A stretch of DNA of 64,000 nt from assembly GCA_049608025.1 (NCBI GenBank), contig JBMYXC010000013.1; one strand, 5' to 3'. The translations under genes were made by a program, and so were the position numbers. How positions within the stretch are numbered: the first letter of the stretch is position 1; the number at the start of each line of letters is the position of its first letter. Source of the stretch: Mycobacterium sp. (GTDB lineage Bacteria > Actinomycetota > Actinomycetes > Mycobacteriales > Mycobacteriaceae). Below are positions 24,640 through 54,520 of the stretch, piece by piece. The notes beneath the pieces are model-generated. The model searched no databases and was not told where the DNA came from. It saw nothing but the letters and a program-made list of their open reading frames with translations.

Positions 24640-25290
24640 TCACTCCACCGAGTGACAGCGAGTTTGGTCCAGCTTGGAAATGAACACCGCCGCTTGGGTG
24701 CGGCGTTCCATTCCGAGCTTCGCCAGCAGCCTCGAGACATAGTTCTTGACGGTTTTCTCGGCCAGAAACATTCGTTCCGAGATTTGTTTGTTGGTCAGGC
24801 CCTCGCCGAGGAGGTCCAGCAAGACCCGTTCCTGATCGCTGAGTCCCGACAGCGGATCAGAATGGTCGGCGTCGTGGCGCAGCTTGGCCATCAGGGCTGC
24901 CGCCGCCCGGTTGTCGAGCAATGATCGGCCGGCCCCGACATCCTTGATCGCTGCGGCGAGCTCCATGCCTTTGATGTCCTTGATCACGTAGCCGCTGGCG
25001 CCGGCCAGGATGGCGTCGAGCATCGCTTCGTCAGAGGTGAACGAGGTCAGCATGAGGCAACGCAGATCGGGAAGCATGGACAGGAGATCTCTGCACAGTT
25101 CGATTCCGTTGCCGTCGGGCAGGCGAACATCCAGAACTGCGACGTCGGGTTGAAGTGCTGGAATTCGCGCCAGCGCCTGTGACACTGATCCCGCCTCGCC
25201 GACGACTTCGAGCTCGGGGTCGGCGCCCAGGAGGTCGATCAGCCCCCGTCGAACCACCTCATGGTCATCGACGAGAAAAACTTTCACCAC
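24640..25290 (-). CDS. devR: Dormancy response regulator DosR/DevR
   Basis: [35 protein letters not shown] (phospho-Asp), Lux[42 protein letters not shown]. No cognate kinase in the window. Confidence 0.93.
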
Positions 25291-25307
25291 GAGATCGCCT
25301 CCACTAG

Positions 25308-25329
25308 AGGGTGGGTAAGTACCTACCCT
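25308..25329. promoter_or_regulatory. 22-bp inverted repeat upstream of dosR
   Basis: AGGGTGGGTA-AG-TACCTACCCT: 10-bp arms, one mismatch. Confidence 0.5.
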
Positions 25330-25383
25330 ACGTTCCGTGCCGGCGGCACTGTCCCACCGGCTGCTGCCGTCGGGTCCGGGCCA

Positions 25384-25397
25384 GGGCCAATGGTCCT
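25384..25397. promoter_or_regulatory. DosR box
   Basis: GGG CC AATG GT CCT against consensus GGG AC TWWA GT CCC. Confidence 0.65.
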
Positions 25398-25454
25398 CGG
25401 CGTGGGGGCCTAGTGCTCTGGCGGCGCCGGTGCCGGTGGTAGACCTTTGAGGTC

Positions 25455-26957
25455 ATGGACGGCACGTCGTCGCACCCGGGCGGGCAGCAACAACCCAGGT
25501 CCGCCGCGGGTGACATGGCCGCGCAGGTGCGGGAGACGCACACCGGCATCGTCGTGCTGCTCGGGGACCGGGCCTACAAAGCCAAGAAGTCGGTGGTCAC
25601 CGACTTCCTGGATTTCAGCACGACTGCTCAGCGGGAGCGCGCTTGCCAACATGAAATCACCCTGAACAAGCGCCTCGCCCCAGACAGCTATCTCGGGGTG
25701 GCCTACTTTTCAGATCCAGCGGGCGGTCCCGCCGAACCTGTGATTGTGATGCGCCGCTATGCGGATGCCACTCGCCTCGCATCCCTGGTCAAGGGTGGCC
25801 AACCGGTCGAGAAACACCTGCTCTCCATTGCCCGTGTGCTGGCGGGCTTTCATGGCGTCGCAGAGCGGGGAACGGCAATCGACGCCCAGGCCGGCGTCGA
25901 TGCCGTGTGGGCGCGGTGGCGGCAAAACCTTCACGAACTAGAGAAATACGCCGACGACGTGGTGCCACGTGACGTGCTGAGTGAAGTGGGGCGCACAGCC
26001 GCGCAGTTCGTTGCCGGGCGTCAGGCGCTGTTCACCCAACGCATCGCTGAACGTCGCATCGTCGATGGGCACGCCGACCTGTTGGCCGACGACATCTTCT
26101 GCCTCCCGGAGGGGCCCGCGCTGCTCGACTGCCTGGAGTTCGACGATCAGCTTCGGTATGTCGACGGTATCGACGATGCCGCATTCCTGGCGATGGACCT
26201 GGAATTTCTCGGCAGGAGAGACCTCGCCGACTACTTCGTCGATCAATACACGAAGTGCGGCGATGATCCGGCACCGCGATCGCTGGTGGACTTCTACATT
26301 GCCTACCGGGCGGTGGTGCGCGGCAAGGTGGACTGCGTGCGCGTCTCGCAAGGCCACCCCGAAGCTGCTGCCGACGCACGACGACACTTCGATCTTGCTC
26401 TCGGGCACCTCAGGGCCGGCACGGTGCGGCTGATCATCGTGGGGGGTGGGCCCGGCACCGGAAAGACCACTCTGTCAACAGCGTTGGCCCGACCGTTGGG
26501 AGCCCGCGTGATCTCGACCGACGAGGTGCGCCGACACTTACAGGATGCCGGCTCGGTGTCCGGGGTCGCCGGCGAGCTCAACGCTGGGCTGTACTCGCCG
26601 AGAAACGTCGCCATCGTGTATGACGAGGTGTTGCGACAGGCCGGAGACTGGCTGAGTCGCGGACAGTCGGTGATCCTGGATGGCACGTGGAGGGATTCAG
26701 AGCAACGCGCCAAGGCCGAAGAACTCTGTGGTGAGATCTCGGTGCCGATCGTCGAGTTCAACTGCTCTGTGCCGATTGCCGAGGCGTCGGCCAGAATCCA
26801 GCGCAGACAGCGGTCCTATTCGGACGCGACACCGGACATCGCCGCTGCCCTTGCCGCCGACGGCGGCGACGGGCGCGAAGCCCATGATCTCGATACCGGC
26901 AGGCCACTGGTCGAGGTCGTCAAGCAGGCTCAAGAAATTTGTTGGGGGACAGTCTGA
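25455..26957 (+). CDS. Aminoglycoside-phosphotransferase-like plus P-loop kinase protein (Rv2004c-like)
   Basis: ETHTG, AYKAKK, LDFST, GHADL..DDIF, LDCLEFD..LR.VD, then Walker [10 protein letters not shown] and VILDGTW. Confidence 0.9.
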
Positions 26958-27880
26958 TCCGCGCCAGCGTGGACCCGCGTCCCCGCCGTGCCGTCGACGA
27001 TTTCGGTGATGTCGGCGAGGGCTCCGATGACGGCTTCGTTTCCGGTGTTGCGGGTGAAGTCGCAGGCGGCTTGACCTTTCGGGCCCATCGACCCCGCGGG
27101 GAGGTCCAGACCGGCCAACTCGTCGGGAGTGACTCGGCCCAGGCGGACCTGCTGGGGGGTGCCCCAGTCGACGTAGACACCGTCGACGTCGGTGGCGATG
27201 ACCAGCAGGTCGGCGTCAAGTTGCTCGGCCAGCAGGGCCGATGCGAGGTCCTTGTCGATGACCGCCTCGACGCCGCGCAGGTCGCCGTGTTCGCCCCACA
27301 GCGTGGGGATTCCGCCTCCGCCGGCGCAGATCACGATCACACCCTGTTCGACCAAGCTGCGGATTGGCCGAATTTCGAACACCCGCTTGGGCTTTGGGCT
27401 AGCGACAACCCGCCGAAAATTGTCACCGTCGGGTGCGATGGTCCAGCCGCTCTGTGTCTTGAGGCGTTCTGCGGTTTCCCGGTCATAGACCGGTCCGATG
27501 GGTTTGGTGGGGTGGTCGAACGCAGGGTCGGTGCGGTCGACTTCGATCATCGTCAGCAGGGTGGCCAGCGGCTGGTCGGCCGGCAGCAGATTGCCCAGTT
27601 CCTGCTCGATGACGTAGCCGATCATCGCGTCGGTCTGGGCGCCGAGCACGTCCAGGGGGTAGGGATCTACCCCTTCAGCCAGGTCGTGGTAGGCGGCCGA
27701 CTGCAGCGCCAGCAGACCCACCTGGGGGCCGTTGCCATGCGCGATGACGATCTCGTTGCCGGGGGTGATGGCGGCGATGCACTCGGCCGCGACCCGGATG
27801 TTCGCCCGCTGATTGTCTGCGGTCATGGGCTGACCTCGACGCAACAGCGCGTTTCCCCCGAGTGCGATCACGATTCTCAT
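26930..27880 (-). CDS. arcC: Carbamate kinase
   Basis: [80 protein letters not shown]. Confidence 0.95.
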
Positions 27881-27925: not shown

Positions 27926-28276
27926 CTACGAACCGTTCTGTCTTGTGGCGGTTTTCGCGACGGTGAGCAGGATCGCCGAGGTTTCCAGGGCTTCGAGCGA
28001 GTGGCGCGCATCCGGCACGCTGATGAGATCGCCGGCCGAGCCTTCCCAGCTGTCGCTGCCTGCGATCAGCCGAACGCGTCCGCGCAGAACGTGCACCGTC
28101 GCTTCGCCGGGGTTCTCGTGTTCGTCGAGCCTCTGGCCGGCCACCAACGCGATCACGGTTTGACGCAGTACGTGTTCGTGACCTCCGTACACCGTGTGCG
28201 CGCCACGTCCGCTGGATGCACGTTCAGCGCCTGCCACCTGCTCGCGAGCCAGTGCCGTCAGCGAGATCTTGTTCAT
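27926..28276 (-). CDS. Small cupin-domain protein
   Basis: L.EHENPGEATVHVL.GRV.L and GDLI.VPDARHSL.A cupin motifs. Confidence 0.85.
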   Translation of the reverse strand: MNKISLTALAREQVAGAERASSGRGAHTVYGGHEHVLRQTVIALVAGQRLDEHENPGEATVHVLRGRVRLIAGSDSWEGSAGDLISVPDARHSLEALETSAILLTVAKTATRQNGS

Positions 28277-28391: not shown

Positions 28392-28459
28392 GCGCCGATA
28401 GGCCCGCAATGGTGACAAACTGCCCTGTTTCGACCGCGCCCGTGGAGGATAATGGTCCA
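28392..28459. promoter_or_regulatory. Cluster of DosR-box-like sites between cupin-arcC and hox
   Basis: GCG CC GATA GG CCC (28392), GTG AC AAAC TG CCC (28412), AGG AT AATG GT CCA (28446). Confidence 0.55.
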
Positions 28460-28502: not shown

Positions 28503-30335
28503 TTGAACGCAGACATCGAGACGGTCCTCCGGCGGCACCGCTACGACGGAACCCGGTTGATCGACATTCTGTGGGACGTCCAGAATCTGTTCGGCCACAT
28601 TCCCGACGAGCACCTCCCGCAGATGGCGAGCGCTCTGGACCGGTCCGTGCCCGACATTGTGGAGACCGCCTCGTTCTATCACTTCTTCCACTCCAAGCCC
28701 TCGGGGCGGCACCGGATTTATCTGAGCAACACGGTGATTGCCAAGATGAACGGGTACCAGGCGGTATACGACGCGCTGGTGCGCGAGACGGGGGTCGGGT
28801 TCGGAGAGACCGACCCTACGGGAATGTTCGGACTGTTCGAGACCCCGTGCATCGGACTCAGTGATCAGGAACCGGCGATGCTGCTCGACGGCGTGGCGTT
28901 CACCCGACTCACTCCCGATACCGTCGCAGAGGTCATCGCGCAGCTGAAGGCCGGGAAAGTCGGCGCCGACATCGCGAATCCGGCGGGGCTCCCGCGGGAC
29001 GGCATCGCCTACGTCGACAACCTGGTGGAACCCAGTGTCCGTACCCGGGGACCGGTGTTCTTCTGTGACGACGTGGATCACCGGGGCTTGCTCGAGCGCT
29101 GCCTCGCCGGTACGCCGGCGCAGACGATCGCCACGATCACCGAGGCCGGTCTGCGCGGATTCGGTGGCGCCGGGTTTCCCACCGGGCTGAAGTGGCGGCT
29201 GGGCAGGGAAGCATCCGGCGATGACAAGTACGTCATCTGCAACGCCGATGAGGGGGAGCCCGGCACGTTCAAGGATCGCGCTCTGCTGACGCACTCGCCC
29301 AAGGACGTTCTCCTGGGAATGGTCATCGCGGCATACGCGATCGGCAGCAGGCACGGGATCGTCTATCTCCGAGCAGAATACGCCTACCTCGAGAGCTATC
29401 TGGAGAGTCAACTCCAGGAACTCCGGCGCGACGGGCTGCTGGGATCCGATATCGGTGGCCTACCCGGATTCGCTTTCGACATCCGTATCCAGATGGGAGC
29501 CGGGTCATATGTCTGCGGCGAAGAGTCCGCGCTGATCGAGTCGTGCGAAGGTAACCGAGGCACGCCCCGGCTGAAGCCGCCCTACCCGATCCAGCAGGGC
29601 TACCTCGGCAATCCCACCTGCGTCAACAACGTCGAAACCTTCGCCGCGGCAACTCGGGTCACGGCCGAAGGCGCTGAATGGTTCAGGCGGATGGGTACAT
29701 CCGACTCGGCAGGGACCCGCCTGGTGAGTGTCGCTGGGGATTGCCGCCGACCGGGCGTCTACGAGGTGCAGTGGGGCATCACCGTCGACGAAGTGCTGGA
29801 GATGGTCGACGCACACAATGCCCAGGCCGTCCAGATCAGCGGCCCATCGGGGGAGTGTCTGTCGGTGCAGCAGGACGGCCGGCGCCGGATCGCCTATGAG
29901 GACATCCCGTGCAACGGCTCGGTCACCATCTTCGATAACACTCGTGACCTGCTGGACTGCGTGAAGGATTACACGAAGTTCTTCGTCGACGAATCCTGCG
30001 GCATATGTGTTCCCTGCCGGGCCGGCACCATCGACCTCCACGACAAGGTGGAACGCGTCCGGGCAGGCAACGGGGTCCAGCAGGATCTCGACGACGCGTC
30101 CGGTTGGGGCGCTCTGGTGCGCGACACCAGCAGGTGCGGTCTCGGGGCCACGGCAGCCAATCCCCTACTGACGACGTGGGAGAAGTTTCCCGAGTTGTAT
30201 CGGGACAGGTTGCGCACTCAAGAGCACGCCCTGCTGCCCTCGTTCGATGCGGAGGCGGCCCTGGCTGAATACGGCACGGCCCTGGCTGAATCAGGCACGG
30301 TGGAAACCAAGTTCGAGACGGACGGGACGAAATGA
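28503..30335 (+). CDS. hoxF: NAD-reducing hydrogenase diaphorase subunit HoxF (NuoE-like plus NuoF-like)
   Basis: TTG at 28503 after GGGAG (alternative ATG 28452); RLIDILWDVQ...GHIP, GLRGFGGAGFPTGLKW, CNADEGEPGTFKDR, YVCGEESAL, SCGICVPCR..RCGLG. Confidence 0.93.
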   Translation: MNADIETVLRRHRYDGTRLIDILWDVQNLFGHIPDEHLPQMASALDRSVPDIVETASFYHFFHSKPSGRHRIYLSNTVIAKMNGYQAVYDALVRETGVGFGETDPTGMFGLFETPCIGLSDQEPAMLLDGVAFTRLTPDTVAEVIAQLKAGKVGADIANPAGLPRDGIAYVDNLVEPSVRTRGPVFFCDDVDHRGLLERCLAGTPAQTIATITEAGLRGFGGAGFPTGLKWRLGREASGDDKYVICNADEGEPGTFKDRALLTHSPKDVLLGMVIAAYAIGSRHGIVYLRAEYAYLESYLESQLQELRRDGLLGSDIGGLPGFAFDIRIQMGAGSYVCGEESALIESCEGNRGTPRLKPPYPIQQGYLGNPTCVNNVETFAAATRVTAEGAEWFRRMGTSDSAGTRLVSVAGDCRRPGVYEVQWGITVDEVLEMVDAHNAQAVQISGPSGECLSVQQDGRRRIAYEDIPCNGSVTIFDNTRDLLDCVKDYTKFFVDESCGICVPCRAGTIDLHDKVERVRAGNGVQQDLDDASGWGALVRDTSRCGLGATAANPLLTTWEKFPELYRDRLRTQEHALLPSFDAEAALAEYGTALAESGTVETKFETDGTK

Positions 30336-31048
30336 GCATCCAGATCGAGATCGATGGGATTTCGGTGTCGACTCAGGAGAACCGAATCCTTGTCGACGTC
30401 GCCGCGGAGGCGGGTGTATACATCCCGACGCTGTGCTACCTGAAAGGTAAGCCGTGTCTCGGGACCTGCCGGGTGTGCACGGTGAAGGTCGACGGTGCGG
30501 TGGTCGCGGCCTGCACGGTCCGCGTCGCCGATGGAATGACTGTCGAGGTCGACGAACCCGAGACGGCTGATTTACGGAAAGCGTTGGTAGAACTGCTGTT
30601 CGCCGAAGGCAATCACAACTGTCCCAGTTGTGAGAAGAGTGGTCGCTGCACCTTGCAGGCGGTCGGCTACGAGGTGGACATGCTCGTCTCGCGCTTCCCG
30701 TACCGGTTCCCGACCCGAGAACGGGACCACGCCTCCGAACGGATCTGGCTGGAGCGGGATCGCTGTATTTTCTGTCAACGCTGTGTGGAGTTCGTCCGCG
30801 ACGAAACGACCGGACAGAAGATCTTCAGCATCAGTGCGCGCGGGACCGAGTCACAGATCGACATCGATGCCGAACGCGCGAACGCCATGCCGCCCGAGCA
30901 GGTCCGCTATGCCGTGGAGATCTGCCCCGTCGGCGCCATCCTCGAGAAAGGGGTCGGCTTCGACGTTCCGATCGGTCAGCGCAAGTACGAAATCGAGTCC
31001 GTCCGGGACCGGACTCTCGGCACCACAGATGAGGCGGGCACACCGTGA
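30332..31048 (+). CDS. hoxU: NAD-reducing hydrogenase Fe-S subunit HoxU
   Basis: IPTLCY, GTCRVCTV, AAC, EGNHNCPSCEKSGRC.LQ, DRCIFCQRCV, ICPVGAI; ATGA overlap with hoxF. Confidence 0.93.
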   Translation: MSIQIEIDGISVSTQENRILVDVAAEAGVYIPTLCYLKGKPCLGTCRVCTVKVDGAVVAACTVRVADGMTVEVDEPETADLRKALVELLFAEGNHNCPSCEKSGRCTLQAVGYEVDMLVSRFPYRFPTRERDHASERIWLERDRCIFCQRCVEFVRDETTGQKIFSISARGTESQIDIDAERANAMPPEQVRYAVEICPVGAILEKGVGFDVPIGQRKYEIESVRDRTLGTTDEAGTP

Positions 31049-31662
31049 CGGACGAAATCGCTTCGCACGAACTACCGGCAACGGCTACCGACCCGGCTTT
31101 CTCGGCGAGCCAGGACGGCAAGATCAACGTGGCGATGATCAGTCTGTGCGGCTGCTGGGGATGCACATTGTCGTTTCTCGACATCGACGAGCGAATCCTG
31201 CCGCTCCTGGACAAGATCACCATTCGCCGCTCCTCGCTCACCGATATCAAGCGGATCACGCAGCGATGCGCCATCGGCTTCATCGAGGGCGGCGTTGCCA
31301 ATGAGGACAACATCGAGACGCTCCGTCACTTTCGGGAAAACTGCGACATCCTCATCTCCGTCGGAGCGTGCGCCGTCTGGGGCGGCATTCCTGCGATGCG
31401 CAACGTCTACGACGTGGATGACTGTCTGAAAGAGGCCTACCTCGACTCGCCCACCGCGGTTCCGGGTGCCACACCGGTCATTCCGTTGCATCCGGACATC
31501 CCGGTACTCACCACCAAGGTCCACCCCTGCCATGAAGTGGTTCACATGGACTACTTCCTGCCCGGTTGTCCACCCGAGGCGGACGCGATCCTTACCGTGC
31601 TCGATGATCTGATAAACGGCCGCCCGGTCGCGCTGCCCCGCCCGCTGACCCACTATGACTGA
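31045..31662 (+). CDS. hoxY: [NiFe]-hydrogenase small subunit HoxY
   Basis: SLCGCWGCTLSFLDIDE, IEGGV, SVGACA.WGGIPAMRN, DYFLPGCPP; short, single-cluster form. Confidence 0.93.
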   Translation: MTDEIASHELPATATDPAFSASQDGKINVAMISLCGCWGCTLSFLDIDERILPLLDKITIRRSSLTDIKRITQRCAIGFIEGGVANEDNIETLRHFRENCDILISVGACAVWGGIPAMRNVYDVDDCLKEAYLDSPTAVPGATPVIPLHPDIPVLTTKVHPCHEVVHMDYFLPGCPPEADAILTVLDDLINGRPVALPRPLTHYD

Positions 31663-31677
31663 ACCCGGAGGTTTCGC

Positions 31678-33144
31678 GTGAGCAGAAAGCTCGTCATCGA
31701 TCCCGTGACCCGCATCGAGGGCCACGGGAAGGTGACCGTGCATCTCGATGACGACGGCAACGTCCTCGATGCCAGGCTGCATGTCGTCGAGTTTCGCGGC
31801 TACGAGAAGTTCGTTCAGGGCCACCCGTTCTGGGAGGCGCCGATGTTGATGCAACGCATCTGCGGTATCTGCTTCGTCAGTCACCATCTGGGCGGCGCGA
31901 AAGCGCTCGACGACATCATCGGCGTCGGTGCCGGCTCAGGAAGCGGGGTGACGGTCACCGCGGAGAAGATCCGCCGTCTCGGCCACTACGCGCAGATGTT
32001 GCAGTCCCATGTGACGGCGTATTTCTACTTGGTTGTCCCCGAGATGATGTTGGGGATGGATACCGCACCCGAGCAGCGCAATCTGCTGGGTCTGATCCAG
32101 GCGGACCCCGAATTGATGCGCAGAGTGATCATGCTGCGCAAATGGGGTCAAGAGGTGATCAAGACGGTCTTCGGGAAGAGGATGCACGGCATCAGTTCGG
32201 TGCCGGGAGGCGTCGACAAGAACGTGAGCGTCGCCGAACGCGATCGGCTGCTCAATGGCGAAGAGGGGCTCCCGTCGATCAGCGAGGTCATCGACTACGC
32301 ACAAGACGGGCTGCGCCTGTTCCACGACTTCCACGCCAAGAACCGAAGTCAGGTGGACGGCTTTGCCAACGTTCCCGTCCTGAGCATGTCGCTGGCCGAC
32401 GCCGACGGCAACGTGGACTACTACCACGGCGCGTTGCGGATCGTGGGCGAGGACAAGAAGGTGGTCCGCGAGATCGACTATCACGACTACCTCGACCACT
32501 TTTCCGAAGCCGTCGAACCGTGGAGCTACATGAAGTTCCCCTTTCTCAAAGATCTGGGACGGGAGAGGGGCTCGGTTCGGGTGGGCCCGCTCGCGCGGAT
32601 GAACGTCACGAATTCGCTGTCGACACCGCTCGCTCAAGAGGCGTTGGAGAAGTTCCACGCCTACACCGACGGTGCATCGAACAACATGACGCTGCATACC
32701 AACTGGGCGCGGGCCATCGAGGTTCTCCATGCTGCGGAACTGATCGAAGAGTTGCTGCGAGATCCGGACTTGCAGAAGCAGGATCTTGTCGTCACTGCTG
32801 CGCCGGGAGCGTGGGTGGGTGAAGGTGTCGGTGTCGTCGAAGCCCCGCGCGGCACGCTGCTTCACCACTACCGCGCCGGCGCCGAAGGCGACATCACCTT
32901 CGCTAATCTGATTGTGGCCACGACCCAGAACAATCAAATCCTCAACCGCACAGTGCGTTCGGTGGCCGAAGACTATCTGGTGGGTCACGGTGAGATCACC
33001 GAGGCGATGATGAACGCCATCGAGGTGGGGATTCGCGCCTTTGATCCATGCCTGAGCTGCGCGACCCACGCCTTTGGGCAGATGCCGCTGATCGTGACGG
33101 TGCTTGATTCGGCGGGAAATGTGCTCAACGAACGCGTGCGTTGA
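31678..33144 (+). CDS. hoxH: [NiFe]-hydrogenase large subunit HoxH (group 3d)
   Basis: IDPVTRIEGHGK, FRGYEKF..G, L1 motif RICGIC..SH, EAPRGTL.HHY, L2 motif DPCLSCATH, followed by a cleavable tail AFGQMPL... Confidence 0.95.
   Translation: MSRKLVIDPVTRIEGHGKVTVHLDDDGNVLDARLHVVEFRGYEKFVQGHPFWEAPMLMQRICGICFVSHHLGGAKALDDIIGVGAGSGSGVTVTAEKIRRLGHYAQMLQSHVTAYFYLVVPEMMLGMDTAPEQRNLLGLIQADPELMRRVIMLRKWGQEVIKTVFGKRMHGISSVPGGVDKNVSVAERDRLLNGEEGLPSISEVIDYAQDGLRLFHDFHAKNRSQVDGFANVPVLSMSLADADGNVDYYHGALRIVGEDKKVVREIDYHDYLDHFSEAVEPWSYMKFPFLKDLGRERGSVRVGPLARMNVTNSLSTPLAQEALEKFHAYTDGASNNMTLHTNWARAIEVLHAAELIEELLRDPDLQKQDLVVTAAPGAWVGEGVGVVEAPRGTLLHHYRAGAEGDITFANLIVATTQNNQILNRTVRSVAEDYLVGHGEITEAMMNAIEVGIRAFDPCLSCATHAFGQMPLIVTVLDSAGNVLNERVR

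Positions 33145-35932: not shown

Positions 35933-35933
<1 letters not shown>
34923..35933 (-). CDS. Dihydroorotate dehydrogenase-like flavoprotein (DHOD-like; no catalytic Cys)
   Basis: YLGLQL.NPLVASASP, SLFEEQ, PVIGSIN, ELNIYS (in place of ELNxSCP), VAVKLSP, LFNRF.QPDID, ATTGV. Confidence 0.88.
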
Positions 35934-39510
<3,577 letters not shown>

Positions 39511-39514
<4 letters not shown>

Positions 39515-47288: not shown

Positions 47289-47353
47289 GGGTCGAAGGTC
47301 ACTGGAATGGGACCCGCACGACGTTGTCCCCGTGGGTTGAGGACTTGCGACCC
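47289..47353. promoter_or_regulatory. DosR-box-like sites between the ppsA operon and the tgs genes
   Basis: GGG TC GAAG GT CAC (47289) and AGG AC TTGC GA CCC (47340). Confidence 0.6.
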
Positions 47354-47389: not shown

Positions 47390-48805
47390 ATGGAGCAACT
47401 CAGCATGCTCGATGCGAGCTTCTTGCAGGCCGAAGATTCCGATCCGCACGTGAGCCTTGCGGTGGGTGCCGTTTCGATCATCGAGGGGCCGCCGCCGGAC
47501 TACGAGGATCTCGTCGCGGCGTTCACTGAACGCGCACAAAGCATTCCACGCTGCACGCAGGTGCTGCACACCCGGCCGCTCGACCTGGGCGCACCGGAAT
47601 GGGTGGACGATCGACACTTCGACATCGCGCACCATCTGCATCACGCGGCGGTGCCGCACCCAGGAGACGACGCCGAGCTTTACGCGATCATTGCCAGCAT
47701 CATGGAGCGGCGACTCGACCGCGACCGGCCGCTGTGGGAATGCTGGATCATCGAAGGGCTCGAGGGTGATCGTTGGGCGACGCTGATGAAGGTCCACCAC
47801 TGCGTCGCCGATGGCATCGCCACGGCTCAAATGCTGGCGAAGCTCAGCGACGACGGCGCCGGTGCGACATTTGCCGGTGACATTCGTGCTGCGAAGGAAT
47901 CGCCACCGTCGATCGTCGGCCTGTTGACGCCCAGGCTCAACCCGGTCAACTGGATCAACGATGTCTGGCGTGCGACGCGTGCGGCCACCAGTGCTGCGGA
48001 ACACGCCGTGGTGGGGGCCGCCGAGCTGACGGCCAGGGTGTTCAGCGCCGGCGAGGAGTCCTCGCTGAACGGACCCGTGACCCGGATGCGTCGCTACAGT
48101 GCCGCGATGGTCGACCTCTCTGCCATGAAGAAGGTCAGCGGGGACTTCGGGGTCACGCTCAACGACGTGGCGCTGGCCGCCATCACCAGCAGCTATCGGA
48201 CGATGTTGCTCAAGCGCGGCGAATCGCCCGGGCCGCACGCATTGCGTACGCTCATTCCGGTGTCGATGCGTTCGGCGGACAGTTTCGACGTCACCGACAA
48301 TCGGGTGTCGGCGATGCTGCCGTTGCTGCCGGTCGACGAACCCGACCCGGTCAAGCAGCTGGAGATTGTGCACCGCCGACTGAGGCGGGCCAAGGGCAGT
48401 GGTCAACGGGAGGGCGCAAGCGCAATGTTCGCCGCGGCCGGCAATATTCCCTTCGCTCTCTCGGCATGGACTATCCGTTTCCTGACCCGATTGCCGCAGA
48501 GGTCGGTGACGGCGCTGGCCACGAATGTGCCCGGTCCCCGCAGCGAGCAACGAATACTGGGCCGAAAGGTGTTGGAGGTCCTGCCGGTACCCCCGATCGC
48601 GCTTCATCTGCGCACCGGTATCGCGATGCTCAGCTATGCCGGCCGGTTCTCCTTCGGTATCACCGCGGACTACGACAGCGCGCCCGATGTCGATGCGCTC
48701 GCCCGCGGGATCGAAGATGGAGTGCGGTGTCTGGTGGATCTCGGTGCTTCCCGGGGTGCTACCTCCGGCGATGGATCCACCCGGGTGAATGCTGAGACCC
48801 GATGA
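47390..48805 (+). CDS. Wax ester/triacylglycerol synthase (WS/DGAT)
   Basis: LS.LDASFL.AE, LD..RPLWE.W.IEGL, catalytic HHCVADG, TLNDV.LAA, TNVPGP. Confidence 0.95.
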   Translation: MEQLSMLDASFLQAEDSDPHVSLAVGAVSIIEGPPPDYEDLVAAFTERAQSIPRCTQVLHTRPLDLGAPEWVDDRHFDIAHHLHHAAVPHPGDDAELYAIIASIMERRLDRDRPLWECWIIEGLEGDRWATLMKVHHCVADGIATAQMLAKLSDDGAGATFAGDIRAAKESPPSIVGLLTPRLNPVNWINDVWRATRAATSAAEHAVVGAAELTARVFSAGEESSLNGPVTRMRRYSAAMVDLSAMKKVSGDFGVTLNDVALAAITSSYRTMLLKRGESPGPHALRTLIPVSMRSADSFDVTDNRVSAMLPLLPVDEPDPVKQLEIVHRRLRRAKGSGQREGASAMFAAAGNIPFALSAWTIRFLTRLPQRSVTALATNVPGPRSEQRILGRKVLEVLPVPPIALHLRTGIAMLSYAGRFSFGITADYDSAPDVDALARGIEDGVRCLVDLGASRGATSGDGSTRVNAETR

Positions 48806-50175
48806 CGGAGTTCATGCGCAACAGCGATGCGTTCACCTGGGCCATGGAAAGCGATCCCGCGCTGCGTTCGACGGTGGTGACGGTGATCCTGCTGGACCGG
48901 TCGCCGGACTGGGGCGAGGTGCGTGATCGCTTCAATGTCATCTCGCGTGCGGTTCCGATGCTGCGGCAGCGGGTAGTGCCTTCTCCACCTCCCGCGCCGC
49001 CGCGGTGGGAAGACGCCCCGGACTTCGACCTCAACTTCCACATTCGCAGAGTGACCGCGCCCGCATCCGGCACCACCGATACCGTGCTGGAGATGGCGCG
49101 GGTCGCCGCCATGGAGGACTTCGACCGGGCCCGCCCACTCTGGGAGGCCACCCTGATCGACGGTCTGGAAAACCAGGGAGCAGCACTGCTGCTCAAGTTT
49201 CATCATGCTCTGACCGACGGCGTTGGTGGCATCCAGATCGCGATGATCCTCTTCGACCTCTCCGAGGTCCATGACCAGCACGGGCCGGTGGCGGCGCTTC
49301 CGGAAGTACCCCCGCCGCCCTGGCTTCGCGGTGTCCGTGAGACAGCGCAGTACGACGCCCGCTTGCTGAGCAACGCGCTGATGGGGAGCTTGAAGATGGC
49401 TCCAAAGCTGTTGTCCCAGAGCATCCTACGACCGGTCGACACCGCGTCCTCGGCTGTCGAGCTGGCAGCATCGGTCTACCGCACCATGCGCCCGGTGAAC
49501 CGGCCCGGTTCACCGCTGATGAACAAGCGCAGCTTGATCCGCCGACTCGGCGTGCTCGAGGTCCCGTTTGCTCAGCTCAAGGCCGCCGCCCACCATGGCG
49601 GCGGAGCGCTGAACGACGCCTTTGTGGCGGGGGTGGCCGGAGGGTTGCGCCGCTACCACGAAGAGCACGGCGTCACCGTCGGGGACCTCCACCTGACGAT
49701 GCCGATGAGCCTGCGCGAAGAAGGCGACGAATTGGGCGGGAACCGAATCACCATCATGCGGTTCGACGTGCCGGCCGGCATTGCCGATCCGCAGGAGCGG
49801 ATTCGCCAGATCCACGACATCACCGGCAAAGTACGTCACGAAAAGTCGTTGCCCTATACCCAGTGGATCGCCGGTGCCCTGAACATGATGCCGCGCTGGT
49901 ACATCGGCTCGATCCTGCGCAACGTCGACTTCCTGTGCAGTGACGTGCCGGGGATTCCGGTGCCGGTATTCCTCGGTGGCGCCAAGGTCCTGACGCAGTA
50001 CGCATTCGGCCCGACCATCGGCTCAGCCGTCAACGTCACGCTGTTGACCTATGTCGATTCGTGCACGCTGGGCATCGACGTGGACACTGCCGCGATACCG
50101 GACTGCGACGTGTTCTTTGACTGCCTCGCAGCCGGTTTCGACGAGGTGTTGGCGCTGGCCCCAACCGATGCCTGA
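48802..50175 (+). CDS. Second WS/DGAT-family acyltransferase
   Basis: D.F.W.ME.DP.LRST, D..RPLWEA.LIDGL, HHALTDGVGG, LNDAFVA; ATGA overlap with the first copy. Confidence 0.92.
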   Translation: MTEFMRNSDAFTWAMESDPALRSTVVTVILLDRSPDWGEVRDRFNVISRAVPMLRQRVVPSPPPAPPRWEDAPDFDLNFHIRRVTAPASGTTDTVLEMARVAAMEDFDRARPLWEATLIDGLENQGAALLLKFHHALTDGVGGIQIAMILFDLSEVHDQHGPVAALPEVPPPPWLRGVRETAQYDARLLSNALMGSLKMAPKLLSQSILRPVDTASSAVELAASVYRTMRPVNRPGSPLMNKRSLIRRLGVLEVPFAQLKAAAHHGGGALNDAFVAGVAGGLRRYHEEHGVTVGDLHLTMPMSLREEGDELGGNRITIMRFDVPAGIADPQERIRQIHDITGKVRHEKSLPYTQWIAGALNMMPRWYIGSILRNVDFLCSDVPGIPVPVFLGGAKVLTQYAFGPTIGSAVNVTLLTYVDSCTLGIDVDTAAIPDCDVFFDCLAAGFDEVLALAPTDA

Positions 50176-50226: not shown

Positions 50227-50958
50227 TTATTGCCCGCCCGAGCCGCGGCCGGCCGAGGATTCCGGGGGCCCCGATAGGTCGGTCAATGGTCCTCCGAGAA
50301 CCGCGTTGGCCGGATCCCGCAACGCGACGTCGGCGACCCGGCGCTTGATTCCCAGCAGTAGCCCGCGGGTCACCAGTGCGATGACCGGACCAGCAAGCTC
50401 GACACCGAGCACCTCCCCGGGGTGTCTGAGCCGGGTGCGGGTGCGGACCAGGAATCGGCAGCGGTCCTGCCAGCGAGGAAGGAGATGCAAGGACCACACG
50501 GTTTCCCAGGGAAATCCCGGTCGTGATCCGCGGAGCACGAGGGTGCTTCCTTCGACGACCTCCTCGACCTCCAGCGTCACCCCATGGCGCAGTCCCATCC
50601 AGCCCGTCGGCGCGAGTCGGACGGTATCGCCGGGCGCGAGGCGCTGCCACTCGGGATGAATCCGGTCGGAGTTGTCGGTGTCCCCACCGCCGTCCAGACC
50701 GACCAGCTTCGCCACGTTGGCGAAGCCGTACAGACCGGCGCGGTCCTGGCCGAGCTGTGCGATCCACGGCCACACTGCTGCCGGCGGGGCGTCAATCCAG
50801 ATGCCTTCGGTGGATTGGATTGTGGGGCGGCGCACCAGTTCGTCACCTGGAAGTTTCATGGCGCACTCTTCTTTGGTGGTGCCCCAATTGCGGTAGTACC
50901 GTCGCGCCGCATAAAGAAAGGCGCTCGCTCCCGCGGCCCGCGCCAAGTACTTTGTCAT
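50227..50958 (-). CDS. Conserved actinobacterial protein, SRPBCC-like
   Basis: WGTT.EE..M.LPGDELV, I.APPAAVWPWIAQLGQDRAGLY, IHPEWQ.LA.GD.VRL. Confidence 0.8.
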   Translation of the reverse strand: MTKYLARAAGASAFLYAARRYYRNWGTTKEECAMKLPGDELVRRPTIQSTEGIWIDAPPAAVWPWIAQLGQDRAGLYGFANVAKLVGLDGGGDTDNSDRIHPEWQRLAPGDTVRLAPTGWMGLRHGVTLEVEEVVEGSTLVLRGSRPGFPWETVWSLHLLPRWQDRCRFLVRTRTRLRHPGEVLGVELAGPVIALVTRGLLLGIKRRVADVALRDPANAVLGGPLTDLSGPPESSAGRGSGGQ

Positions 50959-50993
50959 GACCAGACTCTGCACCTGGACCGGCTGGCGGGCTA

Positions 50994-51041
50994 GGGCCGG
51001 TAGTCCCTACCAACTGCCCCTCAAGGTGTGACTTCTGTCCC
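50994..51041. promoter_or_regulatory. Two DosR boxes
   Basis: GGG CC GGTA GT CCC (50994) and GTG AC TTCT GT CCC (51028). Confidence 0.7.
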
Positions 51042-51109
51042 TGTCATCCTTGCGTCGGGCAAGTCCACGCTGGACTCGGGCGTGGCTGATTGAGGGGTGT
51101 CGGGTTGCA

Positions 51110-52795
51110 GTGAGAAGCCGAGGGTTCCCGGGTCTGACTCAGTTTCAGGGGTACGAGAGGCGCTGGCTGCGAGCGGATCTGACAGCGGGCGTGACGGTGG
51201 CCGCATACCTGATTCCCCAGACGATGGCCTACGCCACCCTCGCCGGGCTGCCGCCGGTCACAGGTCTGTGGGCTGCGCTCGTCCCGCTTGCGGCCTACGC
51301 AGTGCTCGGATCGTCCCGGCAGCTGTCGGTGGGGCCCGAGGCCAGCACCACGGCCATGACCGCTGCCACCCTCGGGGTGATCGCCGACGGTGATGTCGCG
51401 CGTTACGCCGCGGCGGCGGCCGCGCTCGCACTGCTCGTCGGTGCCACCTGCCTGGCAGGCGGATTGCTGCGACTGGGTTTCCTCGCCGACCTGCTGTCGC
51501 GGCCGATACTTGTCGGCTATATGGCTGGCATTGCGCTGGTGATGATCGCCGGCCAGCTTTCAAAGATCACCGGGACTGAGGTAACGGGTCACGAATTCAT
51601 CTGGCAGACAAGCTCTTTTCTCAAGAACCTGGACGACGTACATTGGCTTACCCTGAGCTTGGCGTCTTTGGTGGTTGCAGTGCAACTCGTATTTGCCTGG
51701 CGGGCACCCCGCCTGCCTGGACCGCTGATCGCGGTTGTCCTTGCTGCGGTCGTGGTGATGGTGGGGTCATTGCAGACGCGAGGGATCGCGGTGGTCGGAT
51801 CCGTTCCCCCGGGCCTCCCGGGTGTCGCTCTTCCGGCTCTGCGCCTCGCCGATCTGGGGATGTTGCTGCTGCCCGCCATGGGCATCGCGATTGTGGCGTT
51901 CTCCGACAACGTGGTGACCGCGCGGGTTTTCGCTGCGCGCAGCGGTCTGGAGATCGACGCCAACGCCGAGATGCGGGCGCTGGGGATGTGCAATCTGGGT
52001 GCTGGGCTGACTCACGGTTTCCCGGTCAGTTCCAGTGGGAGCCGCACCGCCATCAGCTACTCCCTGGGCAGCCGCACGCAGCTCAATTCGTTGGTCACCC
52101 TCGGTGTGGTTCTGCTGGTGCTGACGTTCGGGGGCGGTTTGTTGTCGGCGGTGCCGCTGGCCGCCCTCGGGGCGCTGGTCCTCGTCGCGGCGTTGCAGCT
52201 GATCGATGTGTCGGAATTTCGCCGGTTGGCGCGTTTTCGCCGCAGCGAACTGATTCTTGCGGTCGCGACCACCGTTGCAGTGGTGAGCCTTGGGGTGCTC
52301 AACGGTGTGCTGGTCGCTGTGGGGCTGTCCATCCTGGACTTGTTGCGCCGGCTGGCTCGGGCGCACGACAGCGTTCTCGGTTTCGTCCCCGGGTTGCCGG
52401 GCATGCACGACATCGACGACTATCCGCGCGCGGAATTGGTGCCAGGCCTGGTGATTTACCGCTACGACGCCCCCTTGTGCTTCGCCAACGCCGAGGACTT
52501 CCGCAGGCGAGCATTGGCGGCCGTGGACGACTACCCGCAACCAGTGCAATGGTTCGTGCTCAACGCCGAAGCCAACTCCGAGGTCGATCTCACCGCGCTG
52601 GATGCGCTGCAGAGCCTGCGTATCGATCTGGGCAGGCGGGGCGTCACCTTTGCGATGGCCCGGGTCAAGCAGGATCTACGACACGCGTTGCAGACGGCCG
52701 GGATGCTCGATGCCATCGGGACCGATCGCATCTACCCGACGCTGCCCACCGCCGTGGCCGCGTTTCGGCGGCGGGATGGTGTCACCGAGGACTGA
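51110..52795 (+). CDS. SulP/SLC26 anion permease with STAS domain (Rv1739c-like)
   Basis: ADLTAGVTV....IPQ.MAYA.LAGLPP..GL, GSSRQLSVGP, SSSGSRT, YRYDAPLCFANA, D.TALDAL. Start uncertain (51050-51110). Confidence 0.93.
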   Translation: MRSRGFPGLTQFQGYERRWLRADLTAGVTVAAYLIPQTMAYATLAGLPPVTGLWAALVPLAAYAVLGSSRQLSVGPEASTTAMTAATLGVIADGDVARYAAAAAALALLVGATCLAGGLLRLGFLADLLSRPILVGYMAGIALVMIAGQLSKITGTEVTGHEFIWQTSSFLKNLDDVHWLTLSLASLVVAVQLVFAWRAPRLPGPLIAVVLAAVVVMVGSLQTRGIAVVGSVPPGLPGVALPALRLADLGMLLLPAMGIAIVAFSDNVVTARVFAARSGLEIDANAEMRALGMCNLGAGLTHGFPVSSSGSRTAISYSLGSRTQLNSLVTLGVVLLVLTFGGGLLSAVPLAALGALVLVAALQLIDVSEFRRLARFRRSELILAVATTVAVVSLGVLNGVLVAVGLSILDLLRRLARAHDSVLGFVPGLPGMHDIDDYPRAELVPGLVIYRYDAPLCFANAEDFRRRALAAVDDYPQPVQWFVLNAEANSEVDLTALDALQSLRIDLGRRGVTFAMARVKQDLRHALQTAGMLDAIGTDRIYPTLPTAVAAFRRRDGVTED

Positions 52796-52817: not shown

Positions 52818-53258
52818 TCAATCGGTAGTTGCCTCGCGGTCGGGTTCGCGACTGAAACGGAACCGGCGACCGCTGATCCGTGTCGGTCGTATTCGGACGT
52901 AGTGCTCCTTGACCGTTCCGGTCCACGGAAGGAGTTGGGCGCTCTCAGCATCGGCGATCTCTTCTTCGGTGTGCAGGCTGCGGGCCATACCCTTGACGAT
53001 CACGCTCCATCCTTCGGATTCGCCGTAGTCGTCGGCCTCGAAGAGCACTTGCGTGTTGATGGCGCTGCTGACGAGCTTGGTTCCCTCCGCGGTGCGGAAC
53101 AGCACAGTGCGGCGTTGGACGGCGAAGTTGACGGGAAAGATCTCGGGCATACCATCGGCGCTGGTCACCAGCCGGCCCAGCGGAGCACCCGAGAGCAGTT
53201 GCCAGCACTCACTTTCGGGCAGAATCGTCACCGGACGGTCGGTGGCGTCCTTGCTCAT
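52818..53258 (-). CDS. Pyridoxamine 5'-phosphate oxidase family protein (Rv3129-like)
   Basis: ECWQLL....LGRLV, PEIFPVNF, FRTAEGTKL, V.FEADD, GWSVIVKG, ISGRRF. Confidence 0.9.
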   Translation of the reverse strand: MSKDATDRPVTILPESECWQLLSGAPLGRLVTSADGMPEIFPVNFAVQRRTVLFRTAEGTKLVSSAINTQVLFEADDYGESEGWSVIVKGMARSLHTEEEIADAESAQLLPWTGTVKEHYVRIRPTRISGRRFRFSREPDREATTD

Positions 53259-53342
53259 GGCGTACCCCAATCCTCCTGCGTTGTCCCGTTGATGTCGCAG
53301 GGCGTCGACAATCATGCTAACCACACGCCGCCCGCGTTTCGT

Positions 53343-53378
53343 GAGGCGTTGGTCCCCGCCGTACGGGACTTCGGTCCC
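53343..53378. promoter_or_regulatory. Primary and secondary DosR boxes
   Basis: GGG AC TTCG GT CCC (53365, near-consensus) and GAG GC GTTG GT CCC (53343), 22 bp apart. Confidence 0.8.
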
Positions 53379-53422
53379 TGGTGGATGCTCGGTGGCCGGG
53401 GGCAAACTCGAAGGCGTTCCTT

Positions 53423-53487
53423 GTCAACGAGAACGGTCAACGAGAACGGTCAACGAGAACGGTCAACGAGAACGGTCAACGAGAACG
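53423..53487. repeat. VNTR: five perfect copies of the 13-mer GTCAACGAGAACG
   Basis: Copies start at 53423, 53436, 53449, 53462 and 53475. Confidence 0.97.
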
Positions 53488-53503
53488 AGCCGAAGGTAGA
53501 TAC

Positions 53504-54520
53504 ATGGCTGCAGAGTTCCCCGATGACAACACCGTTCGTGCGGCGTTGATGTTGGCGACCCGTGCACCATCGGTACACAATTCACAGCCATGGCTTTGGC
53601 GGGTGGGACCGCACAGCCTGCATCTGTATGCAGACCCCGCGCAGCATCTGAAACACACCGATCCCGATCGGCGCGATTTCATCCTCAGCTGTGGGGCGGC
53701 CCTCGGTCATTGCGCTGTCGCCCTGGCCGCGATGGGCTGGCAGCCGATCATTCATCGGTTGCCGAATCCCGCTGAGCCCGATCACCTCGCCTCGATCACG
53801 GTGCGTCGCCACGCGGCGGGCGAGACCGATATCGCGTTGGCGGCCGCCATCGCCCAACGACGCACCGATCGACGCACCTTCAGTTCGCAACCGGTGCTCC
53901 TGGGCGACATCGCGTGGATGGGTGCCCGCGTCGCGCGGATGGGCGTGTCACTGCGCCGGGTAGAAACGACTACCGATTTCAAGGCGATTCTGACCCAGGC
54001 GGTGTGGCAGCATGCGCTCGACTCGGATTATGCGCAGGAGCTGACAGACTGGAGCGGCCGACATGCCGCGGACAGCGGGGTGCCGGCGCGGAATATTCCG
54101 GAGTCCGACCCGGTGTCGGCGGTGCCCTCGCGCGTCTTTGCCGCCAGCGCACTGAATCAGCCGACCGACGCGCCGCCCGCGTATGACAACGGTGTCCTGT
54201 TGGCGCTGGGAACCTCTGCCGACGACCGCCTGAGCAGATTGCGTGCCGGTGAGGCGACCAGTTCGGCGCTGCTCACCGCGACTTCGCGAGGACTGGCGAC
54301 CTGTCTGGTGTCGGAAGTGTTGGAGGTCCTGGAAACCCGGAGGATGCTGCGGTCGGAGATCTTCGATGATCGGTACTACCCGCAGATGCTGGTGCGGGTC
54401 GGATGGGCTCCCGCCGACGCCGATCGGGTGCCGGCAACCCCCCGGCGGCCGATCGCCGACCGGGTGAGGCGTCTCGACGGTGCGCCATTCGACGGGTTCG
54501 AGGGCGAGGATTCGGTCTAG
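53504..54520 (+). CDS. Acg-family FMN-binding nitroreductase-like protein (Rv3131-like)
   Basis: SD GAAGG at 53492; A.RAPSVHNSQPW.W, SCGAAL, I.QRRTDRR.F, L.AGEA.S..LL.AT..GLA, PQML.RVGW, TPRRP. Confidence 0.92.
   Translation: MAAEFPDDNTVRAALMLATRAPSVHNSQPWLWRVGPHSLHLYADPAQHLKHTDPDRRDFILSCGAALGHCAVALAAMGWQPIIHRLPNPAEPDHLASITVRRHAAGETDIALAAAIAQRRTDRRTFSSQPVLLGDIAWMGARVARMGVSLRRVETTTDFKAILTQAVWQHALDSDYAQELTDWSGRHAADSGVPARNIPESDPVSAVPSRVFAASALNQPTDAPPAYDNGVLLALGTSADDRLSRLRAGEATSSALLTATSRGLATCLVSEVLEVLETRRMLRSEIFDDRYYPQMLVRVGWAPADADRVPATPRRPIADRVRRLDGAPFDGFEGEDSV

Follow-up and report, generated by a model that had tools for sequence, protein, structure and literature searches.

The closest described counterpart of the locus considered here is the DosR island of Mycobacterium smegmatis, in which a hydrogenase, phosphoenolpyruvate (PEP) synthase (23-fold in mRNA and 70-fold in protein), and Tgs are induced, with release of H2 and a build-up of glycerides (PMC2799521; bioRxiv 10.1101/2023.09.11.557286). 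Fermentative H2 production by obligate aerobes has so far rested on this species and its group 3b hydrogenase alone. In cyanobacteria, pyruvate:ferredoxin oxidoreductase (PFOR) and the group 3d Hox hydrogenase co-occur, sometimes side by side, and have been read as a means of disposing of fermentation electrons (PMC2974642, PMC3858816). A co-transcribed trio of GltD-like, NifJ, and DHOD-like genes is known from Propionibacterium, where cells on sugars obtain their catabolic acetyl-CoA mainly through its PFOR (PMC7650540). Here, we analyze a 64,000-nt stretch of DNA from Mycobacterium sp. (contig JBMYXC010000013.1 of assembly GCA_049608025.1; hereafter the window), in which an island bordered by dosR, at positions 24640 to 54520, brings a group 3d-type Hox hydrogenase together with PEP synthase, the PFOR trio, and two Tgs enzymes. 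The island is a chromosomal locus of the DosR (hypoxia/NO/CO) regulon and a lineage variant of the H2- and lipid-storage hypoxia island of M. smegmatis; it probably, if by no means securely, encodes a fermentative valve under DosR.

The core of the island is formed by two convergent operons, hoxF-U-Y-H-W-eno on the plus strand and ppsA-otsB1-gltD-like-nifJ-DHOD-like on the minus strand. An initial annotation, made from the letters alone, had called these genes and the surrounding homologs of DosR-regulon members (OtsB1, SulP, Rv3129-like, Acg, tgs, and, by its architecture, the Rv2004c-like protein), and Pfam and NCBIfam confirmed all of its gene calls across the island; the two coupled operons and the junctions it described were likewise borne out when the sequence was read. 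On the minus strand, ppsA and otsB1 overlap in ATGA, otsB1 and the gltD-like gene are 2 nt apart (TGA-CG-ATG), the gltD-like gene and nifJ again overlap in ATGA, and nifJ and the DHOD-like gene share a single nucleotide (TGATG). On the plus strand, the overlaps are ATGA for hoxF/hoxU, GTGA for hoxU/hoxY, and ATGA for hoxW/eno, with a 15-nt gap that contains GGAGG between hoxY and hoxH and a 1-nt gap between hoxH and hoxW. Comparison with orthologs set the starts of hoxF (TTG 28503), hoxW (ATG 33146), eno (ATG 33649), nifJ (ATG 39514), and the gltD-like gene (ATG 41142). Judged by these junctions, both operons are translationally coupled. The stop codons of eno and the DHOD-like gene lie only 8 nt apart (34914-34923), and no bidirectional terminator or hairpin was found between the convergent operons (fold z-score of +1.2), so that read-through would yield mutually antisense RNA. 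The G+C content of the window is ~65%, and there is no compositional break at the island.

For the fermentative valve, we envisage that phosphorylated DosR, charged by kinases encoded elsewhere, would bind degenerate boxes at five divergent promoters and co-induce hoxFUYHW-eno, a cupin-arcC unit, ppsA-otsB1-gltD-like-nifJ-DHOD-like, tgs-tgs, sulP, the Rv3129-like gene, acg, the Rv2004c-like gene, and dosR itself. Glycolytic pyruvate would then be converted to acetyl-CoA and CO2 by NifJ, an enzyme identified by homology and presumed to run in this direction, and its electrons would pass to the PorD-like ferredoxin domain of the NfnB/GltD-like flavoprotein and from there to NAD(P)+. Working together, the three proteins would amount to a pyruvate:NAD(P)+ oxidoreductase in which the DHOD-like FMN protein provides a second redox arm. 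The O2-tolerant NAD-linked hydrogenase would reoxidize the NADH that comes from glycolysis and perhaps also from the trio, with H2 as the redox valve, and this H2 might be taken up again on re-aeration. By analogy with M. smegmatis, acetyl-CoA and NADPH would be channeled into triacylglycerol by the two Tgs enzymes. Substrate-level ATP could be supplied by carbamate kinase and perhaps by PpsA turning PEP into pyruvate (AMP to ATP), and the spare enolase may be one of a set of hypoxic glycolytic isozymes, as the islands of relatives carry PfkB and Gap.

The regulator matches M. tuberculosis DevR (3c3w) over its full length (378 bits, residues 1-211) with an identical recognition helix; on this similarity, it is a true DosR ortholog of Rv3133c (NarL type), as the initial annotation of a DosR island had supposed. 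The binding sites are less clear-cut. A scan with the strict M. tuberculosis 20-mer consensus was dropped, as its best site reached 14/20 matches and its hits were not above chance window-wide, and a relaxed core pattern combined with phylogenetic footprinting was used instead. This pattern (GGGNCN4GNCCC, at most one mismatch), searched in the five divergent intergenic regions (885 bp), gave 9 matches where the window rate predicts 0.62 (P = 2e-8); a count of 9 was reached in only 1 of 5000 composition-matched shuffles, and 5 in 5000 matched in all five regions. Boxes had been claimed for all five divergent promoters, and in the relaxed form they are present in all five, but the canonical core GGGACN4GTCCC occurs only at 53365-53378, and a single site fits the stringent consensus GGGACTTNNGNCCCT (PMC6448022). 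Alignment of the region upstream of hoxF showed that the window and its closest relative, L085 (93%), share GTGAC[A/C]AACTGCCCTG followed by GATAAT, a -10-like hexamer that lies downstream of the hox box at 28446-28451 in the window; a second relaxed match is found in this region at 28392-28405. DosR-like boxes also precede hoxF in M. vanbaalenii, M. gadium, and M. hodleri, the last of which carries GTGACAAAGGGCCC, while none was found when one was looked for upstream of hoxF in the Rhodococcus opacus operon. Next to ppsA, GTGACCTTCG[GA]CCCTG is the sole invariant block in an alignment of the window with M. gadium, M. hodleri, and M. malmoense, and the tgs-proximal 20-mer TTGAGGACTTGCGACCCTGC is identical in M. 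gadium. Given the box enrichment and the conservation of boxes in relatives, DosR control of both the hox-eno and the ppsA-otsB1-trio operons is plausible.

It is clear from its subunits that the hydrogenase is not of the group 3b Hyh type, as these are HoxFU-type (NuoEFG-like) and HoxH clusters with the group 3d soluble hydrogenase (SH). HoxH is 78% identical to that of Cupriavidus necator and 81% to that of R. opacus, with the RIEGH, CGIC (Cys62/65), and DPCLSCATH (Cys458/461) motifs conserved, and by sequence the enzyme is an intact group 3d, NAD-coupled, O2-tolerant SH. It also does not belong with the ferredoxin-reactive HoxEFUYH enzymes of cyanobacteria, as HoxF is without a HoxE-like domain that carries a 2Fe-2S cluster: its NuoE-like N-terminal domain has a single Cys in the first 175 aa, as in R. 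opacus HoxF, and the HoxE-type cluster is therefore absent. The hox operon (28503-33652) has a G+C content of 62.3%, lower than that of the window (65.1%) and of the PFOR trio (66.8%); this difference, and the ~80% identity of HoxH between Actinobacteria and Proteobacteria, suggest that the SH operon has spread horizontally. The enolase encoded at the end of the operon is a divergent paralog, with a lower bit score to Eno of M. tuberculosis (400) than to that of Coxiella (441).

The direction in which the hydrogenase works is one point on which the fermentative valve can be contested. Group 3d enzymes interconvert H2 and NAD according to redox state (HydDB; PMC5037454), and the C. necator SH produces H2 from NADH even with O2 present (PMC3189943); in Escherichia coli cells that express it, fermentative NADH is disposed of as H2, and an adhE mutant is rescued (PMC3765991). 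The alternative that the window SH oxidizes H2, environmental or from another enzyme, to supply NADH in microoxic or re-aeration phases, its adjacency to PFOR being a shared regulon address, is unlikely but deserves to be taken seriously, as the two enzymes to which HoxH is 78-81% identical are uptake enzymes, and DosR of M. smegmatis also induces the uptake hydrogenase Huc (bioRxiv 10.1101/2023.09.11.557286). The neighbors of the R. opacus hox operon, which are RuBisCO, a LysR regulator, a HoxI-like gene, and hyp genes, point the same way, but no Calvin-Benson-Bassham cycle or hyp genes lie near the hox operon in the window, and mycobacterial copies of hox are consistently found among fermentative and glycolytic DosR genes. 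Extra NADH would, moreover, be counterproductive under hypoxic reductive stress, and the C. necator enzyme, with its 78% identity in HoxH, does make H2 from NADH in vivo.

The PFOR itself is of the homodimeric type, a single chain with POR_N, PFOR_II, POR, EKR, 2x[4Fe-4S], and TPP domains, and it aligns over its full length with the Moorella thermoacetica enzyme (6cin; 1260 bits). Against Desulfovibrio africanus PFOR, the alignment reaches only to about residue 1170 of 1231, and the C-terminal part missing from NifJ is the O2-protective extension of the D. africanus enzyme. The GltD-like protein resembles the NfnI (5jca_L, 240 bits) and Stn (8oh5_C) structures and has the make-up of an NfnB subunit (Fer4_20 with FAD and NADPH sites), to which a PorD-like 2x[4Fe-4S] domain (PorD_KorD, residues 508-561) is added at the C-terminus. 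There is no NfnA (2Fe-2S and FAD, FNR-like); the partner is the DHOD-like FMN barrel of the PRK07565 family, the FMN-binding C-terminal region of which aligns with Lactococcus lactis DHOD A, with the catalytic Cys loop shortened and the Cys unaligned. Among the 80 NifJ loci listed, which come from many phyla, a DHOD-like gene follows nifJ in ~50, and the full trio marks the clade closest to the window NifJ. The trio is found across Mycobacteriales, where many Mycolicibacterium species as well as M. malmoense, Nocardia nova, and Rhodococcus aetherivorans have it as an invariant three-gene unit, and it occurs as such in Propionibacterium, Thermoleophilia, and others; the window copy is 51-64% identical to that of P. 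ruminifibrarum.

The initial annotation had PFOR electrons leaving directly through Hox, a link that is not supported, and it gave the GltD-like protein no role. Ferredoxin-type motifs occur in the window only in NifJ and at the C-terminus of the GltD-like protein, and no free ferredoxin gene is encoded in the window. Because, in addition, HoxF is without a ferredoxin-reactive 2Fe-2S site, the GltD/NfnB-like protein is needed, and it is most likely through this protein that PFOR electrons reach NAD(P)+. With a hydrogenase that is NAD-only, the simplest wiring would run from PFOR to the fused ferredoxin domain, to FAD, and then to NAD(P)+. Our working analogy for the trio is pyruvate:NADP+ oxidoreductase (PNO) of Euglena and Cryptosporidium, in which a PFOR is wired directly to an NADP-reducing flavoprotein, with no need for free ferredoxin. 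An Nfn-like confurcating complex has been postulated for the Propionibacterium trio (PMC7650540). A bolder proposal, which we regard as rather unlikely, is that the window trio is one complex that confurcates pyruvate electrons with a higher-potential donor at the DHOD-like FMN to make NADPH without free ferredoxin, and that DosR switches it on together with the O2-tolerant hydrogenase and an ATP-yielding reverse PEP synthase. If true, this would amount to a redox-balanced, ATP-positive pathway from sugar to triacylglycerol and H2 for surviving anoxia, and it would give a reason for the 70-fold rise of PEP synthase in M. smegmatis, which has so far lacked an explanation.

Rearranged versions of the package are found in M. 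vanbaalenii, M. arenosum, M. hodleri, and M. gadium. In L085, the layout is that of the window with an added ornithine carbamoyltransferase (OTCase)-arcC unit. The hox genes of M. hodleri are accompanied by five Usp genes, an Rv2632c-like gene, Acg, PfkB, and Gap, followed by ppsA-otsB1-orf-gltD-nifJ-DHOD and tgs. In M. vanbaalenii and M. arenosum, hox-MlaE converges on DHOD-nifJ-gltD-otsB1, with eno missing from the former, and in M. gadium, hox converges directly on otsB1-ppsA, followed by tgs-tgs, with the trio absent. M. malmoense has the trio without hox nearby, and only a 113-aa PpsA remnant is left ahead of otsB1 and the trio (L088 4184-4525). Together with hoxF of M. gadium, which is split into ORFs of 524 aa and 101 aa (L004 6848-8658), this remnant points to partial decay of the package in some lineages. 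Mycobacterial HoxH falls into two clades, with 85-93% and 75% identity. Such differences in gene order, the comings and goings of modules, the lower G+C content of the hox operon, and its weak box would suit an alternative in which independently regulated modules have accreted at an ancestral dosR locus without forming a coordinated pathway, DosR controlling only acg, tgs, sulP, and the Rv3129-like gene while hox and the trio answer to H2 or a carbon source. We consider this improbable, as hox has been relinked repeatedly, in varied arrangements and in both HoxH clades, with PpsA-OtsB1(-trio)-Tgs, the ppsA box has been kept in four species, and three more species, though not R. opacus, have boxes ahead of hoxF.

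The carbon steps around PFOR are harder to orient. PpsA has the PPDK_N, mobile His, and PEP-utilizers_C domains of PEP synthases, is by sequence a bona fide member of that family, and heads the operon whose later part encodes PFOR. The PpsA reaction lies near equilibrium and is used glycolytically in Thermococcus, and operation in reverse (PEP to pyruvate) appears thermodynamically possible. In hypoxic M. smegmatis, a 70-fold rise of PEP synthase is accompanied by a 3-18-fold drop in PEP, a combination that the authors of that study found hard to square with gluconeogenesis (bioRxiv 10.1101/2023.09.11.557286); to us, the pattern seems compatible with a PEP-consuming, ATP-yielding operation. 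The 1225-aa OtsB1-like protein is of the Rv2006 type, with Hydrolase, Trehalose_PPase, and GH65 N/m/C domains. Its HAD part is a beta-PGM-like remnant, its phosphatase domain is OtsB2-like (5gvx, 405 bits), and the nearest solved GH65 structure is 9lb6 (428 bits), named a "trehalose-6-phosphate hydrolase." The function of M. tuberculosis OtsB1 is obscure, and phosphatase activity is absent from it (PMC11046441). Because of this obscurity and the name of the GH65 relative, the initial statement that trehalose is phosphorolysed turns out to be a guess, and the chain from trehalose phosphorolysis through enolase and PpsA to pyruvate is hypothetical.

The least probable reading runs these enzymes in the other direction, as an electron sink in which the NfnB-like protein bifurcates NAD(P)H electrons, NifJ acts as a pyruvate synthase, and PpsA, enolase, and gluconeogenesis lead to trehalose-6-phosphate and, by way of the OtsB-like phosphatase domain, to trehalose, using up excess reductant and storing sugar. 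Pyruvate synthase and PEP synthase are the classical acetyl-CoA assimilation couple of anaerobic autotrophs, pyruvate to PEP is the canonical direction of the latter (the family to which NCBIfam assigns PpsA as an equivalog), NfnB-like modules are sites of flavin-based bifurcation, and OtsB1 has a TPP domain. Such a route, however, would be very costly in ATP for a nonrespiring cell, and it sits poorly with the fall of PEP under a 70-fold rise of PEP synthase in M. smegmatis (bioRxiv 10.1101/2023.09.11.557286), the catabolic role of the orthologous Propionibacterium trio (PMC7650540), the demand of two divergently transcribed tgs genes for acetyl-CoA, the degradative nature of the GH65 family, and the lack of phosphatase activity in M. 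tuberculosis OtsB1 (PMC11046441).

A number of observations weigh against the fermentative valve itself and keep our confidence in it limited. No DosS/DosT-like sensor is apparent, as no histidine kinase was found among the window ORFs scanned and none lies beside dosR; the kinase gene presumably lies in another part of the genome. Of the five promoters, that of hox has the weakest box, with two mismatches even to the relaxed pattern. The window contains neither hyp maturation genes nor acetate-forming pta/ack genes, and the closest characterized homologs of the hydrogenase act in autotrophic H2 uptake, the R. opacus operon lying by RuBisCO. The transfer of electrons from NADH to H2 is thermodynamically uphill unless H2 stays low, and the canonical direction of PEP synthase is gluconeogenic. 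To these must be added the split hoxF of M. gadium and the trio of Nocardia and Rhodococcus, which lies outside a DosR context with no clear box and therefore is not intrinsically a hypoxia module. A Rosetta-stone test for fusions found the best 150 of 953 strong DHOD-like relatives to be stand-alone proteins of ~335 aa and thus gave no support from fusions for a physical complex of PFOR with the GltD-like and DHOD-like proteins. Evidence for expression was also sought, but the one run listed as "rna" proved to be a flat ~10x genome DNA library, and only DNA runs hold the sequence.

The features of the island are collected in the table. Carbamate kinase and the small cupin, transcribed divergently from hoxF, are additions to the genes named in the initial annotation. 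From its sequence and setting, arcC looks like part of an arginine-deiminase-type ATP module inside the DosR island. The window copy is without the catabolic OTCase gene that precedes arcC in M. gadium (L004 3876-5581) and L085 (4119-6142), and in L085, the OTCase-arcC unit is preceded (6213-6256) by the DosR-like half-palindrome CCGGGTGCTGTAGTCCCCTG in two identical copies in tandem. The Rv2004c-like gene converges on arcC with a 28-nt overlap. The first tgs ORF opens at 47324, with in-frame ATG codons at 47372, 47390, and 47405. A perfect tandem repeat of five 13-bp units, GTCAACGAGAACG, with a period that is not a multiple of 3, occupies 53423-53487; lying between the canonical box and the probable ATG of acg, it is placed in the acg promoter or 5' leader. 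In other sequencing runs, contigs end at this repeat.

Table. Genes and DosR-like boxes of the island, in order of position in the window
Feature	Position	Strand	Basis or remark
dosR (devR), response regulator	24640..25290	-	Response_reg + GerE domains
DosR-like box GGGCCAATGGTCCT, dosR/Rv2004c-like intergenic region	25384..25397		relaxed pattern, 1 mismatch
500-aa AAA_33 P-loop protein, Rv2004c-like architecture	25455..26957	+	Pfam AAA_33, residues 326-458
arcC, carbamate kinase	26930..27880	-	PRK12354 485 bits and TIGR00746 389 bits, both above cut-off
small cupin, first gene of cupin-arcC unit	27926..28276	-	Cupin_2; conserved in L085
degenerate DosR-like box GTGACAAACTGCCC	28410..28423	+	80-93 nt upstream of hoxF
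hoxF, NAD(H)/FMN diaphorase, TTG start	28503..30335	+	2Fe-2S_thioredx + Complex1_51K + NADH_4Fe-4S
hoxU	30332..31048	+	Fer2_4, NADH-G_4Fe-4S_3, Fer4_Nqo3
hoxY, hydrogenase small subunit	31045..31662	+	Oxidored_q6
hoxH, [NiFe] large subunit, group 3d SH type	31678..33144	+	intact
hoxW, maturation endopeptidase	33146..33652	+	TIGR00072 63.9 bits (cut-off 47.45)
eno, divergent second-type enolase	33649..34914	+	TIGR01060 504 bits
DHOD-like FMN TIM-barrel, PRK07565 family	34923..35933	-	NCBIfam PRK07565 451 bits
nifJ, homodimeric-type pyruvate:ferredoxin/flavodoxin oxidoreductase	35933..39514	-	TIGR02176 1647 bits (cut-off 911)
GltD/NfnB-like FAD/NAD(P)H iron-sulfur flavoprotein	39511..41142	-	PRK12771 779 bits; Fer4_20 + Pyr_redox_2 + Fer4_21
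OtsB1-like: beta-PGM-like HAD + TPP + GH65	41145..44822	-	Pfam
ppsA, PEP synthase (pyruvate, water dikinase)	44819..47215	-	TIGR01418 1128 bits (cut-off 740), PRK06464 1179 bits
DosR-like box GTGACCTTCGACCC (ppsA orientation)	47289..47302	-	74-87 nt upstream of ppsA
DosR-like box AGGACTTGCGACCC, tgs-proximal	47340..47353	+	further match at 47358-47371
tgs (WS/DGAT) 1	47390..48805	+	WS_DGAT_cat + WS_DGAT_C; TIGR02946 402 bits
tgs (WS/DGAT) 2	48802..50175	+	Pfam; 4-nt overlap with tgs 1
248-aa protein, weak SRPBCC signal	50227..50973	-	Polyketide_cyc2 E = 0.006, below cut-off
two DosR-like boxes, GGGCCGGTAGTCCC and GTGACTTCTGTCCC, upstream of sulP	50994..51041		box scans
SulP-family anion transporter + STAS domain	51050..52795	+	Pfam; TIGR00815 430 bits
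Pyridox_ox_2 protein, Rv3129-like	52818..53258	-	PF12900 103 bits
two DosR boxes, including the sole canonical core GGGACTTCGGTCCC (53365-53378)	53343..53378		box scans
Acg-family FMN nitroreductase, probable ATG 53504	53504..54520	+	NF047509 307 bits, above cut-off; M. smegmatis Acg 2ymv 141 bits

Outside the island, the window carries prfB and ftsE/X, with a transfer-messenger RNA gene (9831-10199; mycobacterial-type tag ADSNQRDFALAA) downstream of prfB-ftsE-ftsX. Between this gene and dosR lie GGDEF/EAL, NYN, and DUF2252 genes and an ORF of 295 aa (19499-20386) in which a serine-recombinase (Resolvase N-terminal) domain is fused to a GGDEF diguanylate cyclase domain, an unusual combination. 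At 22331-23586, a RES-domain gene (22669-23586) is overlapped by a preceding small ORF with weak helix-turn-helix signals; from their sequences, the two are probably a RES-Xre toxin-antitoxin pair. The pair lies ~1 kb from the dosR edge of the island, with a cutinase gene in between.

The initial annotation regarded the co-regulated package as undescribed in mycobacteria, and this claim holds in part. We found no paper that describes the arrangement, although it is present in published genomes (e.g., M. vanbaalenii PYR-1), and the exact package was likewise not found in the literature; the design with a group 3b enzyme, however, is known from M. smegmatis (PMC2799521; bioRxiv 10.1101/2023.09.11.557286), and of its parts, PFOR beside hox is known from cyanobacteria (PMC2974642, PMC3858816) and the PFOR trio from Propionibacterium (PMC7650540). 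Adjacency of nifJ and hox was also seen at L019, L027, L041, L045, and L063 among the NifJ loci listed. What is new is an SH-type group 3d enzyme in place of the group 3b Hyh, the recruitment of the NfnB-like/NifJ/DHOD-like module into the pps-otsB1 operon, and an enolase coupled to hoxW. These findings suggest that an O2-tolerant NAD-linked hydrogenase occupies the same regulatory slot in other mycobacteria, of which M. vanbaalenii PYR-1 and M. hodleri can be cultured, and that it stands there beside an anaerobe-type PFOR. They also offer a concrete, testable role for the widespread, uncharacterized NfnB-like/NifJ/DHOD-like module, the NifJ/DHOD-like pair of which is found in many phyla, and bear on why PEP synthase is so strongly induced by hypoxia. 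The sequence was found in seawater and sponge metagenomes, and the system may therefore matter for H2 cycling in marine oxic-anoxic microniches.

PNO is a single fusion with a cytochrome-P450-reductase-type module, whereas the window proteins are separate and the flavoprotein is of a different family, with no fusion found. The GltD-like protein shares with the NfnAB and Stn transhydrogenases the NfnB architecture of 2x[4Fe-4S], FAD, and NAD(P)H sites, but a DHOD-like FMN barrel takes the place of NfnA, and an extra PorD-like di-cluster domain is fused at its C-terminus. The three-gene make-up of the Propionibacterium operon is identical to that of the window trio, but the genes of the former are co-regulated, by carbon source, in a facultative anaerobe and has no link to a hydrogenase or DosR. 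In cyanobacteria, the 2Fe-2S cluster of HoxE has been implicated in reactivity with ferredoxin (PMC11647496), whereas the window enzyme is without this cluster and an NfnB-like protein is interposed. With the SH of C. necator and R. opacus, the locus has in common HoxFUYH, HoxW, and the active-site motifs, and with that of R. opacus the cluster-less NuoE-like domain of HoxF; it differs in that its context is a DosR island rather than RuBisCO, hyp, and LysR genes, in having neither a HoxI-like cyclic nucleoside monophosphate-binding gene nor adjacent hyp genes, and in its predicted main direction, from NADH to H2. The nearest match remains the M. smegmatis island msmeg_3926-3955 (Hyd3/Hyh, PEP synthase MSMEG_3934, and Tgs), likewise a DosR-linked cluster in an obligately aerobic mycobacterium, with a hybrid H2 and triacylglycerol metabolism in hypoxia. 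In both, classical DosR genes are joined by PEP synthase, triacylglycerol synthases, and a bidirectional [NiFe]-hydrogenase of the cytosol; the hydrogenase is of the NADP-linked group 3b type there and of the NAD-linked group 3d SH type here, and beyond these shared parts the window encodes the NifJ trio, a spare enolase, and carbamate kinase, with ppsA in one operon with otsB1 and the trio.

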